The notes under the pieces were generated by a model that ran no database searches, was not told the origin of the DNA, and saw only the letters and a program-made list of their open reading frames with translations. The position numbers and the translations under genes are program-made. 64,000 nucleotides of DNA, from the IMG/VR virus record IMGVR_UViG_2860837431_000002, positions 62,001 to 126,000 of that record; one strand, written 5' to 3'. Below are positions 10,228 through 63,171 of the stretch, piece after piece. The DNA is from an uncultured virus (IMG/VR IMGVR_UViG_2860837431_000002). Lineage: Duplodnaviria > Heunggongvirae > Uroviricota > Caudoviricetes. The first letter of the stretch is position 1, and each line of letters starts with the position of its first letter.

Positions 10228-12102
10228 TTGAAAGGAAAAAAAGATGGCCTAAATAAGCAAGTACATATTTACAGTATTGATACTTCTGCTTTTTATAATG
10301 ATCAAGAAAACAAATTACATAACAAGATTTTAAAATCATATAGGTACAGAGATCATCTCAAAAAACTTGAACATGTTGATAAAAAACATAAGAAGTACAT
10401 AACGCAAAGGATTATTTCCTTAAAAGAAAATCTTTATAACGCCTTTAACAATCATAATCAAATAAGAACACTTAGAACAGATTCCCTGAAAGATAATAAT
10501 GTGATTTCATTATTTGATTCTGTCTTAACTCGAACGTTGGGAATCAAAGAAAACTCTCTCTCTGAAGAGATCATGGTTGTCCAAACTTATCACTTTCAAA
10601 TTTTAAGGGACATTATTGATAAAGGATTCATACATAACAATGAGAAATACGTTTATTTCACTAGCAGTGCCGGTCAAATACGAACCAAAAAGTCATGTTT
10701 TATCAAGCAAAGCACCTTAGATAAGTATCAAAATGCTTTAACTTGTGGCCTTAGCGTGGAGCAAATCAATGCTCAAGGTGGAAGCAGCATAAACAAATGG
10801 AATAGCTACATGGCCTTATCGAATAGCGCCAGCAGTCCATGGGAAATTGATATTGATAAAGTAATTGTGGTAAATGACTTAGAAACAAACGTTTCTAGCC
10901 TGGTTGATTATATTGACCGTGATACATATGAAATCACTCGTAAGATTATGGATATTCCTATAGAACATACAGATGGTTGCGGAATGATGCTTCCCAGTTT
11001 GAGCCAGAAAAGCTTTATGGTCAGATTACCTTGGGTTAAGGGTCTGCTAGTTCCATTTGATTTTAGAAGGTTTGCTGAAAAACACAGTTCATTTATAGTT
11101 AAGGACGTCTACGGTAAAGAATGGGACATTATTAAAGATGATATCCAAATAATTTTTACGAAAAGTCAGTTTAAGATGTGGAAGTACTATGATTCATGGG
11201 ATGACTATCGTTATAAATTCAAAAAGTATGGATGTCTTGGGGCTAAGTTAAATGAAGAAGATCCATCTGTTGAGGGAAAACTGACTTACCAAATGCTACA
11301 AACACTCACTGATATCACAGATGAAGAATTGAAACAAATCAGCTCAAAGACTGTTAGTGAGATTACTCAATTAGGCACTGATAAAGAAACAATGATGAAA
11401 GTTTTGGGGGCTACCGAGAAAAATAAACATAAGACAAGCCTTCAAGAAGCACTACTGATATATCCAGAGCTGTTAAATGATGATCACACTAAAGAAATCA
11501 TTAAAAATAAGAAGAAGAGTATGATTAAGGACGCCAAATCAGGAAAATTACTTGTTAGTGACGCCAGGTATACGTATTTATGTCCAGATCTTTATGCTTT
11601 TTGTGAAAGACTGTTTCTTGGAATTGAAAATCCAAAAGGATTGCTCGCCGGCAGCAATGTTTATTGTTCTTTATATAATGAAGGGCATATTGATATCCTC
11701 CGCTCCCCTCACCTATACAGAGAGCATGGAGTTAGGTGGAACAAAAAAGATGAGGAATATGAAAAGTGGTTTATTACCCCAGGTGTTTATACCAGCATAC
11801 ATGATCCGATATCCAAGCTGCTACAGTTTGATAACGACGGAGATAAGGCCTTAATTATTTCTGATGAGCTAATCGTTAATATAGCCAAGCGTAATATGAA
11901 GGATATTGTTCCACTATATTACGAAATGTCAGTAGCCCAGAAACAAGAGATTAATAGCAGGAACATTTATGAAGCACTAACTCTTGCCTACGGAATCAAT
12001 ATCGGGGAATACAGCAACAACATCACTAAGATATGGAACAGTGACAATATAAACCTGGACGTGATCAAATGGTTATGCATGGAGAATAACTTTACTATCG
12101 AT
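10228..12102 (+). CDS. yonO: Single-subunit phage RNA polymerase YonO, exon 1 (625 aa)
   Basis: Catalytic DxDGD (QFDNDGD), TDGCG, RSPH motifs; ends ...NNFTID at the splice site. Confidence 0.93.
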
Positions 12103-13398
12103 TAAATTTATAGTCGCGTCGCATAGCGATATGCGGATGAAAAGTCAGTGAACCTAGAAAACTAGGGTGTGCATTCAGCGAAAAGTAGCGATAGGAAATG
12201 ATCGTTAATGAGTGTGCTAACAGGGGAATTCTAATTAATACATTTTACATTTTGAACAATGATATTTAAAACAAGGGGGTGACAAAGTGAAGTTTATAAA
12301 TGAGGATGAGCATAAATATTTGAGTGGGATATATAAGATTGAGCAGATAAGCACCGGCTTAATATATGTGGGGAAAACTAAGATGAAATTTATTAAGCGT
12401 TACTGGCATCACACTTGGAAGCTGAAAAACAATTCGCACTGTAATCGACATTTGCAGAATAATTGGAATAAATATGGAGAAAACGATTTCCAATTCCATG
12501 TTTTACAAACAGTTGATCCAAACTCAGATATGAACGAATTAGAAACTCACTACATAAATGAACTAGGTGCCTATTTAAATGGCTTTAACATGACCACCGG
12601 CGGAGAGGGCAAGAGTAATTGCAAGATGTCTGACTCCACCAAAAAGATTATTGGGGAAAAGAATAGGATTAATAACATCGGAAGAAAGCTTAGTGATGAG
12701 ACTAAAGCCAAAATGAGTAAGGCAAGAATTGGCAGAAAGCTCTCTCCGCAGCATAAGGAAAAGCTTTTACAATCTAGAATGAATAAAAGGCATTCGCCAG
12801 AATCTAGATTAAAGATGCGTCAGTCTCATTTAGGGTCAAAAAATAAATCCTCAAAAATAAATGAAACGAAAGCACACGAGATAAAAGTTCGATTGATTAA
12901 TGGGGAAAAGATGTCTGAAGTATCAAAATCAATGCGTGTTTCCTACCCCATCGTTAAATCAATATTACAGTGTAAAGTATGGAATCATATTCATGTTACT
13001 GGGTGGGACGACTTTATTCTTAAATACAAAAGCAAGAAGAAAAGCACTCTTACTCCAGAAGAAGTATTTTGTATAAGAGAACTTCTTAAAAAAGGGTTAT
13101 CAGCACCCCATGTTGCAAAAATGTGTAACATAAAACCCAATGTTGTTTATGGAATTAAACAAGGAAGAACCTATAAAAATGTGAAATGAATGTTGAATGT
13201 AGAATGTATTATATGAAAACCCTGTGCCAAGCGTTTACATCATGCTGAGAAGTACTTGTAAATGAAGGTGCAACGACCATCCTTTATGGAGTAATAATAA
13301 GGTGAAATTCCTTATTATGAAGCGCTGACCATCTGTCTAGTACAGATGATGATATGGTCTATTCCCTAATAAATATCGGGAAACCGAGGGTATCAAAG
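12103..13398 (+). mobile_element. Group I self-splicing intron (IA-like, 1296 nt) in yonO
   Basis: Exon ends in U with P1 CGAU/GUCG U-G wobble; terminal G 13398; P3 GTCAGTG 12144/CGCTGAC 13323; P4 CAGGG 12221/CCCTG 13220; P7 GACCA 13275/TGGTC 13355; P8 CATCTGT/ACAGATG; P9 TCGG-GAAA-CCGA; removal restores the in-frame junction NNFTID|FAKT. Confidence 0.92.
12287..13189 (+). CDS. Intron-encoded GIY-YIG homing endonuclease with NUMOD3 repeats and C-terminal HTH
   Basis: GIYKI...YVGKT; repeats GRKLSDETKAKMS, GRKLSPQHKEKL, HSPESRLKM; own SD. Confidence 0.92.
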   Translation: MKFINEDEHKYLSGIYKIEQISTGLIYVGKTKMKFIKRYWHHTWKLKNNSHCNRHLQNNWNKYGENDFQFHVLQTVDPNSDMNELETHYINELGAYLNGFNMTTGGEGKSNCKMSDSTKKIIGEKNRINNIGRKLSDETKAKMSKARIGRKLSPQHKEKLLQSRMNKRHSPESRLKMRQSHLGSKNKSSKINETKAHEIKVRLINGEKMSEVSKSMRVSYPIVKSILQCKVWNHIHVTGWDDFILKYKSKKKSTLTPEEVFCIRELLKKGLSAPHVAKMCNIKPNVVYGIKQGRTYKNVK

Positions 13399-14031
13399 TT
13401 CGCAAAAACCTTGTTCATGCCCACCCGCCCTGATCACGTTGATGAGAAAATCAAAGATTACATAAAAAATAAAGTGCCCCACTTCTTCATCAATGCCAAG
13501 GATAAAGAAGAACATAGCGTAGAATCGATTAATGAAAGTACAGTAAATAAGTTAGACTCAATTATTCCTAATGAACGAATCAACTTTAACGCAGTTGCAG
13601 GAAAATTTGATTACCGTTTCTTACTTCGAAATAAAAAAGTGAAACTTGATGAAACGGTTATCAATGAGTACAAACGTCTTGACCGAAACAAAAAGTGGCT
13701 CATGAATAATGAAGAAATTAAACCAGGAGAAAAGCTATACGTCTATAAGATTATCAAACAAAGATTAATGGAAATACATAACGATGAGCAACTTATTACA
13801 GATGTTTTAGTTAAGTACCTATATAAAAAGAAGAGTAAATTCAAATCGACTTTGTGGGAGTGCTTTGGCGAACATATATTGGAAAATTTAAAGATTAACT
13901 TAAGGAATTTTAAGGCTTGTGGGAATTGCGGAAAAATGTTCAGTCCCTCTTCTAATAAATCTAAATACTGTAACAATTGCTCAAAAAAAATGATCTTAGA
14001 TAAACATAAACGCTACAATAAAAAAAGATAA
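13399..14031 (+). CDS. yonO: YonO exon 2 (210 aa, C-terminal Zn finger); spliced protein 835 aa
   Basis: [17 protein letters not shown]... in frame after the terminal G; CGNC...YCNNC. Confidence 0.9.
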
Positions 14032-14293
14032 CGACCAATAGAAAGTGCCTTGAGCCTTACTCCCCCAAGGGATACAGCATTTCTCGGCAAAAAAAGATCA
14101 ACAAAAAAGCACCTTGAACCCTTGGTACGACTGGGCTGAAAGCCCCTTTTGAGATAATCGCCATAAGGGAGAAAGAAAGCTAATTTCCACATAAAAGGGC
14201 GAGTAAGTCTCCCATTTTTTCAAAAAACCACAAACGTTACCGTAATTATACTTTAACACAAAAATAAACGAAATCACTAGGAGGATTTAAAAC

Positions 14294-14569
14294 ATGAACA
14301 AAACAGAATTTGTTGGAGCAGTTGCAGAAAAATTAGGTGTTACTAAGAAAGAAGCTACTCCTAAAGTTGAAGCAGTATTTAATGTCATCGTTGAAACACT
14401 AACAAAAGGTGAATCAATTAAGGTTCCTGGAGTTGGAACATTTGAAGTTCGTGAACGTGCAGCTCGTAAAGGGAGAAATCCACAATCAGGCGAAGAAATT
14501 GATATTCCAGCAACAAAAGCACCTGCCTTCAAGGCTGCAAAAGCTCTCAAAGATGCAGTGAAAGCTTAA
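14294..14569 (+). CDS. yonN: HU-like DNA-binding protein
   Basis: MNKTEFV...GVGTFEVRERAARKGRNPQSGE HU signature. Confidence 0.95.
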   Translation: MNKTEFVGAVAEKLGVTKKEATPKVEAVFNVIVETLTKGESIKVPGVGTFEVRERAARKGRNPQSGEEIDIPATKAPAFKAAKALKDAVKA

Positions 14570-14615
14570 CAATCTATAATGAGGGATTAGCATCCCTCCC
14601 CTCTCTTCAACTATA

Positions 14616-14753
14616 AATGCGGTGGCGGAATAGGTAGACGCGTAGACTGAGGTGGTATGGCTAACCTTCGGGAAACTCAGGGCCGACCTTCTTACGAAGA
14701 CTAATAGTCGGCAAATTGCCGTTCATGCGGGGTGCAAATCCTCGTCCGCATTC
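14616..14753 (+). ncRNA. tRNA-like RNA with the anticodon arm replaced by an ~85-nt branched domain
   Basis: Acceptor AATGCGG/CCGCATT; D-arm GCG-GAATAGGTAGA-CGC; T-arm CGGGG-TGCAAAT-CCTCG; no anticodon stem, no encoded CCA. Confidence 0.6.
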
Positions 14754-14759
14754 ACTTCA

Positions 14760-15630
14760 GGTGTTAAGAGAGATTATTTGATTACTGATATATGGGATAT
14801 CAGTTCTCGACTAATGTTCATTTATGAAGGTAAAGTTCAATCTAAATGAATATTAGTGGAGATTCCTCTCCAGTGTGGACTAGCTTTTCTTGATTAAACA
14901 AAATCTACTCCCTTGTTTTCTGTATCATTCTGACACAAAACTGCGGCTGGTCATTGCAGTAAGTCGGATAATAGTCATTTATGAGGGTGCGAGGTTAACT
15001 CGGATGTCTGTATCTAAAGGAGACAGGTAAATGACTATTATCGGGCTAAACATGTCGGTAAGACCTTTGCTACTCAAGTTTTTTATGTAGGGTGAATCCC
15101 ATCACAGTCTTACTATGGGTGACATGTAGCCCTGAATATTAATTGCGGTGTACTGCTTCGGCTTACACTTAGGGAAGGTAGATGCGTCTCCCTTCCCTTT
15201 AAATAATGCCCTTGTAAGCTTCGATGCTTATTATGCGGTCAACAAATTTTTTCCGGGTAAACGAGGCTTTGAAATTCATACCCTCGTAAAATAAGTGATA
15301 TGGTTTTGGGCGCTTGATCACCGCTCTCATTTCACAGAAAAGGATTATTTTCGGTCTTGCTTTTCATTTTCACTTAGGAACATATTCACTATTTATTCGC
15401 TACTTCTCCTTCAATGTTCTGAATGGAGACTTACCTTTCCCATGCACATACCTCCTTACACGGGTCAGAGAAAACTGTGCAAAATAAATGGCGAGCGTTT
15501 GAGACGCTTTGTTTCTCAATAAGGCGTATAACCTGACAAGAGAGACTGAAAATGCCATTGAGAAGGCTTATAATGGGTCTTTCCTTCTCAACCATATAAA
15601 ATAAGCCGCCCATGAAAGACGGCTTAATCT
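14760..15630 (+). ncRNA. Candidate large structured non-coding RNA or leader (strand inferred)
   Basis: Run of long hairpins including a perfect 15-bp stem 14967-14981/15028-15042; no credible ORF. Confidence 0.45.
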
Positions 15631-15647
15631 TACAAGTTCAGTTAATA

Positions 15648-16895
15648 TTATTTTAAAAACTTATTTACAAACTCTACTACTTCATCATACTTATGATCCG
15701 TTGGTTGCCTCTCCAGTTCATTATCTGGATGAGAAGATCTCTGCATTAATCTAATATTTATAGTATTTAAAGAAGCTGTCAAATTGAATATTACAAATCC
15801 AGCATTAAACAATTTCCCTATTTTCAAAAACTCTATCTCTTGCTGATTTAGAAGGACTGATAAATTTATCCAATAAAGTTCATCTGTTGAGATACATTTA
15901 TAATCTTTTTCAATAATGGATACCTCAGCGTAGTTCTCTTTTCCTTCACCATGCTTGTTTCTAAATTTAATCCCAACAATATCGCCCTGTTCATTAGTAT
16001 CAAGACTTTTTGATATTATACATAATACTGATGTAGAGATGTGTTCTTTAGATGTGATCCCCTCTTCATGAACTGGGCCAAATTCTTTGTGAATTTTACC
16101 TACAAACGCATCAATTTCAGGTTGAAAATCAGCTGATTTTTGTTGAGCCTTTTCACGTTGACCTTTAAGTAAATTTTCTTCAATTAGAAATAGTGATTTT
16201 CTAACATTGTCAATTTCCTTACAGTGTATCTTGGGCTCAAAACCATATAAAAAGTTTAATGTGTTTTCAATCCGTCCCTTAAAAGTACTAACTTCTTTTG
16301 AGTTGCTTTCTATAAGGTCAACATCTTTTATCCTGATATGCAGTAAATTCCTTCGAAAATCCACATCAATTATTGTCGGATAAGCTGCATATAAATCATC
16401 ATCATCTTGCCTATAAATTTTAACTGGATTTTTGTCAAGTAAGAGCAATCTTATGCAATCAAAATCATATCTTCTATATCCACAAATAACGAAGTCGCTT
16501 TCAGCTTCATTATTTACATTCGACAGTATTTTATTGTCAGATGGGACTCCCCACTTCCTAAGCAACTGATTTAAATCTGTCTCATTGTTGCACATTATAT
16601 TATCTGGTTGTAGTTTATATAAATATGAATTAAACAAGGTGTCTTCTATCAGGAGAAAGAGCAATTCATCTAAATCCATTTCTGTTAAGAAACCTTCCTC
16701 AATTCCTTTAACTAAAGTTTTCGCCACCTTTATAGCTCTATCTTCATCGTCACTTTGAGTTAATACCTGGCTGTAACAGTCGTTAAATTGAGGATATTTT
16801 TTGATGAAAGCAAGCTTTTGCATTACGAGACCTTTTCTAAGGTAAGGATAAAATAATTTTAAGTCTGAAAATATTTCGTTACTACTTTTCTTCAT
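15648..16895 (-). CDS. Hypothetical 415-aa accessory (moron) protein
   Basis: Long ORF antisense to the late operon; AAGGGG SD; terminator hairpin ~15602-15626. Confidence 0.85.
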   Translation of the reverse strand: MKKSSNEIFSDLKLFYPYLRKGLVMQKLAFIKKYPQFNDCYSQVLTQSDDEDRAIKVAKTLVKGIEEGFLTEMDLDELLFLLIEDTLFNSYLYKLQPDNIMCNNETDLNQLLRKWGVPSDNKILSNVNNEAESDFVICGYRRYDFDCIRLLLLDKNPVKIYRQDDDDLYAAYPTIIDVDFRRNLLHIRIKDVDLIESNSKEVSTFKGRIENTLNFLYGFEPKIHCKEIDNVRKSLFLIEENLLKGQREKAQQKSADFQPEIDAFVGKIHKEFGPVHEEGITSKEHISTSVLCIISKSLDTNEQGDIVGIKFRNKHGEGKENYAEVSIIEKDYKCISTDELYWINLSVLLNQQEIEFLKIGKLFNAGFVIFNLTASLNTINIRLMQRSSHPDNELERQPTDHKYDEVVEFVNKFLK

Positions 16896-16930
16896 ACTAT
16901 AACCCCTTTTTATTTTTTAGGAGGAATGAA

Positions 16931-17107
16931 ATGAAAATTGAAATTTTCACTAACAGACTATTCCTGGGTTGTTTTGACGCTGAAGATTTTTTTCTAAGCA
17001 ATGAATCTCTTGCGGTTGGTACAATTATTCAGATTGCAGATAAAGATTACTGTATAGTAACAATCTCTATAATTGAACCTTCCAAGATGTTTATAGAGGT
17101 CTGTTAA
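16931..17107 (+). CDS. Small hypothetical protein (58 aa), below the ORF-track cutoff
   Basis: AGGAGG SD, MKIEIFTNRLFLGCFDAEDF...FIEVC. Confidence 0.5.
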   Translation: MKIEIFTNRLFLGCFDAEDFFLSNESLAVGTIIQIADKDYCIVTISIIEPSKMFIEVC

Positions 17108-17460
17108 TCCACTCTCACTTTACATTATTCGACATTTTTCCGATTTTCCCTTCAAAAATTTTCAATCATCTTTAAAATACACTCCTTGAGTATCTTTACA
17201 GATGAATAGCCAAGACTATTGGGTCAATTATGCAATTAGAACTAGGGCATATAAAAACATAGAGCCTTTTTACGCTTACGAGCCTTCCGGTACGCAAGTA
17301 TGTCAATCAATAATCTCCTTCGGGCGTCTCCCCAACGCCTATCCGACTTATCTTTCATCTCCTTTATATCCCCTTTTCGGACGTTACCGATGCTTCGGAT
17401 CATCGGGCTTCCGAAGGAGCTTATTGCATGTAAATAAAACACATATTGGAGGAATTTAAT

Positions 17461-17646
17461 TTGGCTAAGAAAGTTCATACAGTAAATTTAAAAGGTAATT
17501 ATACTTACATTGATGGAATTATTGAAGAAGAAACAAAAACAGACATCGAGCGTTATGATCTGAATTCAATTTTAAAATCATTTGATGGTCGGAAAGTGAA
17601 AATTTCTATTACCGAAGAAGACGAACTTCCACAAATCAATGAGTAG
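17461..17646 (+). CDS. yonK: YonK protein
   Basis: GGAGG SD then TTG; MAKKVHTVNLKG...DGRKVKISITEE. Confidence 0.85.
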   Translation: MAKKVHTVNLKGNYTYIDGIIEEETKTDIERYDLNSILKSFDGRKVKISITEEDELPQINE

Positions 17647-17657
17647 GTGGTGACTGA

Positions 17658-18845
17658 ATGACAGCTATTTTAGATACTGTTTTACAACGAGAAAAAGACG
17701 AATCATTTACTGATTATCATATCAGACTTTTCAAAAACAAGGACACTTATCACATTGATACAAAAACAATTGCCACTCTTTTAAACAAAGATCAAGGTAC
17801 AAATTATGATGAGAGTAAATGGCGCAAAGATTTTAAGCAATATGAACGATGGAATGATTACATAATGTCAAAGAATTTGGATGATGAAATTCTAAGGAAA
17901 TACGAAGAAGTGCGACTTCAATCTGAAAAGGAAAAGATTAGAACTCGTGATCAAAAAAGAGAATATAGAAAAAGTATAGCCAATCAAGCTCGCTTTGAAA
18001 AAATCAAGGATGATGTAGTCCAAGCTATTGTTAATTTAGAATCAAAAAGACCTCTTCGTTTCACTTTCCCCCTCCCTGCTACTGCTGAAAAGCATGGGCT
18101 TGCTTTGTTCAGTGACTGGCACTTCGGAATGGAAATCGATAACCGCATCAATAAGTTCAATAAAGAAATATTCGATGAACGAGTTGAGCACCTCACAAAC
18201 AAAGTAATTGAGTATGGAAAGAAGAATCATGTCTCCACATTACACGTTGCAAATCTTGGCGATTTAATTGGAGGTCTTATACATGTTTCAACAAGAGTTC
18301 AGGCTAATGAAGATGCTGTAGAGCAAATTAAATATGTGTCAGAAACGCTTGCTGAGGTTTTAGCGATGTTGGCAAGTGAGTTTCAAGAAGTTAAGTTCTA
18401 CAACGTAGCAGGCAATCACGGCCGTCTCTCCCCTTCTAAGAATGATGTCGGGATTAAAGAAAACTTTGAATACCTCATTAATTGGTACCTTGAAGCTAGA
18501 TTAAGAGATATTAAAAACATTTCCATTGAACCAGAACAAGATGGTTTTATCCCCGCTAAAATCAACAATCAAGAAGTCGTGTTTGTCCACGGTCACTATG
18601 ATCGTGTTGATCAATGCGTAACCCGCCTACCTCAATTACTAGGCTATATCCCTTCTTACATATTCGGCGGTCATATTCATCACAACTATGAAAAAGAATA
18701 TGGCAGCACAACTGTTGTTGTAAACGGAGCACTTGTTGGCGCTGATGATTATGCGATGCAGGGTCGCTTTGGTACGAAACCGTCTCAAAAGTTTATGGTC
18801 TTTGATGATGACGGTGTCGAGGCTACATACATTATTCGTTTTTAA
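17658..18845 (+). CDS. yonJ: Calcineurin-like metallophosphoesterase YonJ
   Basis: DWH, GD, GNHG, HGH, GHIH motifs. Confidence 0.9.
   Translation: MTAILDTVLQREKDESFTDYHIRLFKNKDTYHIDTKTIATLLNKDQGTNYDESKWRKDFKQYERWNDYIMSKNLDDEILRKYEEVRLQSEKEKIRTRDQKREYRKSIANQARFEKIKDDVVQAIVNLESKRPLRFTFPLPATAEKHGLALFSDWHFGMEIDNRINKFNKEIFDERVEHLTNKVIEYGKKNHVSTLHVANLGDLIGGLIHVSTRVQANEDAVEQIKYVSETLAEVLAMLASEFQEVKFYNVAGNHGRLSPSKNDVGIKENFEYLINWYLEARLRDIKNISIEPEQDGFIPAKINNQEVVFVHGHYDRVDQCVTRLPQLLGYIPSYIFGGHIHHNYEKEYGSTTVVVNGALVGADDYAMQGRFGTKPSQKFMVFDDDGVEATYIIRF

Positions 18846-61408: not shown

Positions 61409-63171
<1,763 letters not shown>

Follow-up and report, generated by a model that had tools for sequence, protein, structure and literature searches.

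What is made from the 0.9 kb of densely paired DNA that lies between the yonN and yonK homologues of an SPbeta-like phage? We addressed this question in a 64,000-nucleotide stretch, hereafter the window, that spans positions 62,001 to 126,000 of the 131.6-kb record of an uncultured virus (IMG/VR IMGVR_UViG_2860837431_000002) and contains the SPbeta markers BsrG and SR6. An initial annotation had described positions 14760-15630 of the window as a candidate large non-coding RNA of the GOLLD or ROOL kind behind a tRNA mimic, or else as a leader at the head of the ~40-kb late region. In SPbeta, a model temperate phage, transcription of the late operon is carried out by YonO, an unusual single-chain RNA polymerase with a still undefined promoter. 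The published start site of YonO in SPbeta is position 2225998, and the RNA downstream of it was called "an unannotated non-coding RNA" (Forrest et al. 2017, PMC5467207); the passages of that paper on this RNA give the coordinate and the phrase, without structure, extent, modules, relatives or function. We found that the region encodes a real, conserved and structured leader RNA, previously a passing remark, which from sequence and position appears to contain a member of a new AbiD-linked RNA family, R1, and an unclassified 150-nt domain. We give this anatomy and family link a probability of roughly 60%.

A conserved leader downstream of the YonO start site

A blastn search with the interval returned 40 phage records, all from Bacillus phages, of which 12 covered at least 80% of the interval, and a plasmid search gave just 2 SPbeta-like records and 3 tiny matches. 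When the yonN-yonK intervals of 10 SPbeta-like phages were aligned with that of the window (11 intervals in all), a conserved block was found at 14773-15590, 93.8% identical to SPBc2 and present whole or in part in 10/10 of these phages. The stretch 15144-15590 was kept in all 10, positions 15430-15590 were almost invariant, and similarity dropped abruptly at ~15590 in all 11 intervals. SPbetaL2 retained 15144-15590 only, SPbetaL4 was without 14824-15016, and in SPbetaL1 and Goe11 the upstream hairpins were replaced.

The published start could be placed in this block. In a 4.2-Mb genome that forms one contig (G041), the SPBc2 stretch occupies 2225300-2227500 and, because the match is 100% identical, position 2225998 corresponds to base 2199 of locus L089, which aligned to window position 14970, the fourth base of a perfect 15-bp arm. 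A start-site motif at 14964-14988 on the plus strand spans this base and is 25/25 identical to SPBc2. Furthermore, the second PYonO primer in the supplement of PMC5467207 is the reverse complement of window 15066-15092, 97-123 nt past the start; this placement fits a primer-extension product and assigns the RNA to the plus strand. By homology to SPbeta, YonO transcription of the window phage would start at ~14970. Since the published start maps there, 14760-14969 is taken as DNA upstream of the transcript, so that the large non-coding RNA proposed for 14760-15630 held from 14970 onwards and lost its first ~210 bases.

Upstream of the start, a hairpin was found at 14805-14862 on the plus strand (arms 14805-14824/14843-14862, 20 nt, 90% complementary). 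Its 5' arm bears a copy of the start-site motif (14807-14831, 20/25 identical, 157 bp upstream), each of the two copies opens a long hairpin, and the upstream hairpin may be a second promoter/hairpin unit. A longer variant with the pairing kept occurs in SPbetaL1 and Goe11 and a partial one in SPbetaL4; the hairpin is absent from SPbetaL2, where no copy of the motif was found at up to 6 mismatches (L011 2494-3813). The lack of the motif in SPbetaL2 indicates that the promoter module is dispensable or replaceable and that the downstream core is not. In SPbetaL2, late transcription must start elsewhere or continue from yonN.

Folding was compared with dinucleotide shuffles, 20 for the whole interval and 200 for sub-regions. 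The whole interval folded better than its shuffles on both strands (z -3.8 on the plus and -6.0 on the minus strand, each with 0/20 shuffles as good), as did 14970-15211 (z -3.3, 1/200) and 15440-15595 (z -2.3, 2/200), and the middle, 15212-15439, reached a z of only -1.6 (13/200). All five stems listed in the initial annotation were recovered by repeat search and minimum-free-energy folds. Besides the upstream hairpin, the repeat search returned arms at 14962-14981/15028-15047 (20 nt, 90%, the inner 15 nt perfect) and 15171-15182/15187-15198 (92%), and a branched helix at 15043-15132 and a UUCG hairpin appeared in the folds.

The leader, all of whose features are given here on the plus strand, opens with a long hairpin (14970-15042) that has an internal three-way branch in the minimum-free-energy fold and encloses the 5' end of the RNA in a helix of 15 bp or more. 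In an alignment of 24 sequences of the 5' hairpins, 45 predicted pairs were kept and 6 were changed on both sides, and helix columns 8-23/70-85 were paired in nearly all sequences. One-sided changes to G.U on the plus strand were frequent (pair 14-79 is GU in 13 and AU in 10; pair 16-77 is UG in 18); these would be A.C on the minus strand, which argues for a plus-strand RNA. Of the pairs changed on both sides, one lies in the 5'-terminal hairpin (22-71, AU to GC in 4 sequences) and five in the branched hairpin that follows at 15043-15132 (including 94-182, 95-181, 99-178 and 102-169), the apical part of which differs in length among relatives. A variable middle with small hairpins (15212-15443) is down to ~60-65 nt in SIOphi-like phages and L064, and one small hairpin (15205-15250) recurs in phage BSP38 at another position. 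Collectively, these data bore out the view that a conserved structured RNA is encoded on the plus strand of the yonN-yonK interval, where the late region begins, with helices that keep pairing through compensatory changes.

The R1 module

Between the branched hairpin and the variable middle lies a 76-nt module, R1 (15136-15211), made up of the UUCG-capped hairpin and a 12-bp hairpin capped GGA-UGCG-UCU. A gapped pattern derived from R1 was run on a one-genome-per-species collection and on viral contigs. The former gave 21 places, of which 15 were real as judged by flanks and pairing and 6 were chance matches, all 15 being in Bacillota or SPbeta-like contigs; the latter gave 49 places with 1 chance match. 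When 35 distinct copies were aligned, pairing stood at 91.6% over 20 pairs, with 9 pairs doubly changed (81 cells), and the covariation score was 0.381 compared with 0.196 for shuffled alignments (0/500 reached it) and at most 0.145 with slid partners. A model built from this alignment matched the window copy with 93.9 bits (E 1e-19). The loop and flank nucleotides were invariant from Bacillus phages to Listeria, Heliorestis and Clostridia, in an alignment where the search pattern itself had fixed some of the invariant letters. The last stem of R1 resembles a terminator and, outside SPbeta, most copies have a U-run; several of the bacterial loci have their own -35/-10 promoter as well as the U-run and adjoin a Pfam Abi_2 gene.

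The surroundings of R1 differed between phages. In the Herelleviridae Goe3, BSP38 and BM-P1 it lies inside a tRNA array upstream of the portal gene, and in SIOphi-like phages in a 1.4-kb gap upstream of the portal gene; the annotated Herelleviridae loci that were compared show no YonO gene. A Clostridioides mangenotii prophage (L034) has an HU-like gene, tRNAs, an Rfam abiF RNA, R1 and a YonJ homologue (27% identity, E 1e-42) in this order, and no Abi_2 gene was found among the 5 open reading frames (ORFs) scanned there. R1 stands directly upstream of the YonJ-like gene in this locus and in L021. A motif that recurs upstream of R1 and of other non-coding pieces in Bastillevirinae phages (L012, L013, L015, L003) consists of a TTGACG-like hexamer and then GGGTTAGGGTA; it may be a phage-specific promoter.

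Linkage of R1 to AbiD genes

The association of R1 with Abi_2 genes was also examined in reverse, with loci fetched by AbiD protein similarity alone (n=11: 4 from 401 sampled class genomes, 6 viral contigs and 1 from 91 family genomes). Two of these (L102, L108) end short of the flank. The remaining 9/9 had an R1 match on the strand of the gene (E 5e-19 to 5.5e-5), located 43-140 nt downstream of the gene in 8 loci and 114 nt upstream in 1, and the linkage held down to 36% protein identity. Two of the nine had already been found with the R1 pattern and two were mutually near-identical; together with the query, L035, they amount to 9 distinct places. We found a promoter (-35, 17 nt, -10) just upstream of each of 9 R1 copies examined (7 AbiD loci, L035 and L023) and a U-run after 8 of them, the exception being L105; the L023 copy has no intact AbiD gene. 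The R1-linked proteins match Pfam Abi_2 and PADLOC AbiD and, weakly, the solved AbiF-RNA complex 8vz6 (E 2.8e-4). R1 is thus found beside Abi_2/AbiD genes as a transcription unit of its own, and the window copy has no adjacent Abi_2 gene. There was no Rfam match, abiF included, at E≤0.1 in the 11 AbiD/R1 loci.

The 3' domain

The leader ends in a 150-nt domain of four helices (15444-15592) that is nearly invariant among SPbeta-like phages. Helix S1 (15444-48/15476-80) closes a loop with an invariant run, which we take to resemble the anti-Shine-Dalgarno end of 16S rRNA. The others are the long-range helix S4 (15488-92/15555-59), S3 (15499-504/15514-19) and S5 (15561-67/15584-90). A candidate pseudoknot, S2, was rejected as unsupported, since its pairs either never vary or are broken. 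The domain is shared with Herelleviridae and other Bacillus-group phages, and 26 sequences of four types (SPbeta-like, L064/L090, SIOphi-like and a high-GC type D) could be aligned. Across them, 31 pairs were 96.8% paired and 16 were doubly changed (0/500 shuffles). The covariation score was 0.314 versus 0.149 for shuffled alignments, and all four helices, including the long-range one, covaried. A 16-mer from the invariant loop occurred at 48 positions in viral sequences, with chance matches making up at least 3 of the distinct sequences found; in metagenomes it occurred at 54 places, of which 4 were real (L157, L158, L174, L195) and showed no new context. No known family in Rfam matched the domain. 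A literature search for R1 and the 3' domain found no description of either, with the primary paper on AbiF and the origin of Cas13, which may describe AbiD-flanking RNAs, lying outside that search.

A chain of modules

In 38/48 loci, mostly close relatives of one another, R1 preceded the 3' domain, and this order recurred in three lineages (SPbeta-like, the L064/L090 type and SIOphi-like) with a spacer that ranges from ~60 nt to ~230 nt. Goe3-like phages and bacteria have R1 without the 3' domain, and 6 type-D contigs have the 3' domain without R1. The claim of one large RNA was therefore sustained as to conservation and given up as to unity, for the RNA is modular and its modules occur separately in other phages and bacterial genomes. 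These comparisons portray the leader as a chain of independently folding and apparently mobile modules, of which R1 and the 3' domain would be the kept core.

Other RNAs were seen in the surroundings. Further downstream, the same leader contains an RNA of the Rfam family DUF3800-VIII in SPBc2 (L001 5175-5240) and in a B. glycinifermentans prophage (L027 3562-3627); the window has no match to this family. At the Rfam gathering score, 8 homologous loci yielded only tRNA, skipping-rope and DUF3800-VIII, all outside the homologous RNA.

Proposed role of the leader and competing explanations

We propose that the interval is the promoter-proximal end of an SPbeta-type late transcription unit, in which YonO would start at ~14970 and the first ~620 nt would form a plus-strand, untranslated and heavily paired leader ending at ~15592. 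The anatomy of this leader is well supported, and the functions of its modules are proposals. The 5'-terminal hairpin would protect the 5' end of the RNA. Toxins of the AbiD/F group are described, in the published passages on them, as two-part systems in which an RNA partner neutralises a HEPN RNase. As such toxins are restrained by an RNA partner, the phage copy of R1 would mimic the antitoxin: produced abundantly with the late leader, it would keep an AbiD-type toxin silent during infection. We regard this mimicry as tentative. A broader form of it is comparably speculative, namely that SPbeta-like siphoviruses and Bastillevirinae myoviruses might carry orphan RNA partners of AbiD toxins as disarming antitoxin mimics, placed in the late leader or in tRNA arrays. 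The remaining leader modules might serve stability or be further RNA cargo of a like sort.

Several observations weigh against these proposals. The start at 14970 is taken from SPbeta by homology, and SPbetaL2, a viable relative, is without the entire promoter module. The RNA-seq runs gave no usable evidence on the ends or level of the RNA: 13 RNA-labelled runs contain the SPbeta stretch as contigs, and the one examined (X2) cannot separate RNA from DNA because its sequence is a 22.7-kb contig; two raw-read runs had 0 reads, and the 10 reads of a ribosome-profiling run fell in or next to yonN, before the start site. The R1-AbiD link is known here from sequence and position, and binding and neutralisation of AbiD by R1 are putative. 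The AbiD subfamily is rare (4/401 class genomes and 1/91 family genomes, counted on one genome per species) and was absent from 49 genomes of the genus of the B. glycinifermentans locus L027. Among the 15 real R1 hits in bacterial genomes, 2 adjoin an intact Abi_2 gene (L026, L035); in others R1 follows the stop codon of an ordinary gene by no more than ~20 nt, like a plain terminator (L017, L024, L028), or by ~50 nt (L020, L025). The SPbeta-like copies have lost the U-run, and the SPbeta RNA is made late. Finally, known AbiF RNAs lie upstream of their gene, unlike most R1 copies, and R1 does not match Rfam abiF in the window or in the 11 AbiD/R1 loci.

Part of this evidence would suit a purely cis-acting leader that stabilises the 5' end of the 40-kb late mRNA, provides processing sites and blocks or insulates host RNA polymerase. 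The R1 hairpin would then be a terminator ignored by YonO, with no function in trans and no link to defence. The buried 5' end, the terminator-like stem with its U-run in most non-SPbeta copies, the position within ~20 nt of ordinary stop codons in at least three bacterial loci and the placement directly before YonJ-like genes all agree with this, as does the lack in YonO of the flap domain used in hairpin-dependent termination, according to the discussion in PMC5467207. However, a terminator or stabiliser needs no loop and flank nucleotides that are invariant from Bacillus phages to Clostridia, and a cis-acting leader leaves unexplained the near-invariant 3' domain, the 9/9 linkage to AbiD with a separate promoter and the presence of the same modules in Herelleviridae loci showing no YonO gene. 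We therefore hold both the cis-acting leader and the terminator role of R1 to be possible but doubtful. Alternatively, the inverted repeats of 14760-15047 could act as DNA, as hairpin or cruciform promoter elements or as binding sites of YonO or a regulator. This would account for the 25-nt motif being duplicated 157 bp upstream with each copy opening an inverted repeat, and for the complementarity of the second repeat running 8 bases upstream of the mapped start (columns 3-10); the YonO promoter is, moreover, stated to be undefined in the passages seen in PMC5467207. Yet one-sided changes give G.U rather than A.C on the plus strand, even upstream of the start (5-88, UG in 20/24), which points to selection on RNA. 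SPbetaL2 is without the whole module, and the published lists of MrpR/SPBRE repressor sites, as far as available, do not include the interval. Such DNA elements would concern the first third only and are compatible with the leader proposed here; as an explanation of the repeats we consider them rather improbable.

A single large, ornate RNA of the GOLLD/ROOL type, ~0.6-0.9 kb long and acting as one unit, fits the size and dense pairing, the place beside a tRNA-like sequence in a Firmicute phage, the constant order of R1 and the 3' domain in three lineages and the sharp end of the block at ~15590 in 11/11 intervals. We consider it unlikely nonetheless. The kinship to GOLLD and ROOL suggested earlier was not borne out, as neither matched at the Rfam gathering score in the window, and in 14000-16000 no Rfam family reached E≤10. 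SPbetaL2 is without the part before 15144 and SPbetaL4 without 14824-15016, so that the modules are separable; the spacer contracts from ~230 nt to ~60 nt; and each of R1 and the 3' domain occurs without the other. A conserved long-range helix between the two halves was not seen either, though no full-length alignment was tested for one. A coding role for the interval, in the form of the small proteins annotated in phi3T and BUCT082, is very improbable. Hypothetical coding sequences are annotated inside the block in these two phages, and most relatives keep a minus-strand frame open over the 3' domain. However, the annotations differ between genomes. Of 9 candidate ORFs compared over the 11 intervals, 8 are interrupted by stops or give split hits in several of them, and the ninth, that of BUCT082, is interrupted by stops in the window copy and gives split hits in 2 further intervals. 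The DNA under the open minus-strand frame is nearly invariant, and the frame has no Shine-Dalgarno sequence in the window and is missing its start codon in the SIOphi-type sequence; substitutions in the 3' domain occur as compensatory pairs. The non-coding nature of the interval was accordingly upheld: short ORFs exist, and none is intact in 11 relatives except in nearly invariant DNA. We conclude that a late leader with an AbiD-linked module remains our preferred account of the interval.

Genomic surroundings of the leader

The gene order expected of an SPbeta late operon was found around the interval, with the YonO polymerase gene upstream and yonK and yonJ downstream. The left neighbour of the interval is the HU-type yonN homologue (14294-14569, plus strand) and the right neighbour a 415-aa ORF (15648-16895, minus strand); the yonK homologue, a Pfam match, lies at 17446-17646 and the yonJ homologue, encoding a YonJ-type phosphoesterase, at 17658-18845. 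The YonO gene (10228-14031) is split exactly between residues 625 and 626 by a 1.3-kb insert, so that residues 1-625 are encoded by 10228-12102 and residues 626-820 by 13399-13983. The insert contains an ORF of the GIY-YIG homing-endonuclease type (12287-13189), no group I intron was found at the split by Rfam at the gathering score, and an equal split is annotated in several relatives (phi3T, BUCT083, Goe11 and SPbetaL3/L4).

A divergent two-gene insertion (15648-17107) sits within the late leader. Its genes are the minus-strand 415-aa ORF, which has no Pfam or PADLOC match, and a 58-aa ORF on the plus strand (16931-17107) with a strong Shine-Dalgarno sequence. The insertion is also found in SPbetaL3 and SPR and is absent from SPBc2; the late transcript would have to run antisense across the 415-aa gene. 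An intrinsic terminator of that gene (15602-15626, minus strand) falls in the last 40 bases of the interval, where there is a weak Phe_leader-type Rfam match; it bounds the conserved block and lies outside the RNA. Right before yonK, ~170 nt (17274-17445) are kept in 10/10 relatives at 91-95% identity and hold several GC-rich hairpins, forming a second conserved leader element outside 14760-15630.

A tRNA-like element (14616-14755, plus strand) precedes the interval, outside the late transcript. It has acceptor- and T-arm-like ends, with an acceptor-like inverted repeat at 14616-14629/14739-14752, and a long insert. ARAGORN called no tRNA in the window and Rfam none at E≤10 in 14000-16000, and the supposed tRNA mimic is for this reason described only as tRNA-like. 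The element is present in phi3T, BUCT082/083, SPbetaL1/L4 and the Herelleviridae Goe3 and BSP38, always near the R1 module (loci with the element include L012 2255-2395 and L013), and is missing in SPBc2.

Significance and relation to known systems

With this analysis the leader of the SPbeta late operon gains an anatomy, comprising a duplicated start-site motif, a buried 5' end and two modules supported by covariation, R1 and the 3' domain, which are the sole parts of the leader kept in every relative. The link between R1 and AbiD defines a new small-RNA family for widespread HEPN defence toxins, which are said to be ancestral to Cas13, and offers a testable case of RNA-based counter-defence in Bacillus phages. 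The 3' domain, which siphoviruses, myoviruses and high-GC phage contigs have in common, lends itself well to work on structure and function. If the mimicry proposed above were true, the yonN-yonK interval would be an island of anti-defence RNA cargo that includes R1, the 3' domain, tRNA-like pieces, the DUF3800-VIII RNA of SPBc2 and the abiF RNA of Clostridioides, and the R1 family would be a class of AbiD antitoxin RNA not described before, with the RNA gene lying downstream of the toxin gene.

The RNA described here corresponds by homology to the RNA downstream of the SPbeta start site in the passages of PMC5467207, at the same locus, with an identical start motif and on the same strand; compared with SPbeta, the window phage has the extra tRNA-like element upstream and the two-gene insertion downstream. 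With ROOL and GOLLD, large phage RNAs that lie beside tRNA-type genes, it shares its size, dense pairing and non-coding nature; its own neighbour in the window is only the tRNA-like element, and true tRNA arrays enclose the homologous modules in Goe3, BSP38 and BM-P1. Unlike ROOL and GOLLD, it matches none of their covariance models and is modular rather than a single fold.

For R1, the comparison set is the type III-like RNAs of the AbiF/AbiD group (Rfam abiF RF03085; RCd22 of C. difficile; AbiFr, PDB 8vz6, here following the relevant passages of a review). R1 resembles these in being small and structured, in adjoining an Abi_2 HEPN gene, in having a promoter and a terminator of its own and in being more strongly conserved than the protein. 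It differs from the abiF RNA in that it has no match to the abiF model and lies downstream of the gene in 8/9 loci, not upstream. Encoded on a phage, R1 also finds a counterpart beyond this group. Phage phiTE reportedly carries a pseudo-ToxI, a phage-borne mimic of a type III antitoxin RNA. The phage copy of R1 lies in a late leader or tRNA array, unlike pseudo-ToxI, which lies in a repeat array; in both cases the phage would carry an orphan RNA partner of an abortive-infection toxin, the mimicry by R1 being suggested by its homology to the AbiD-linked copies.

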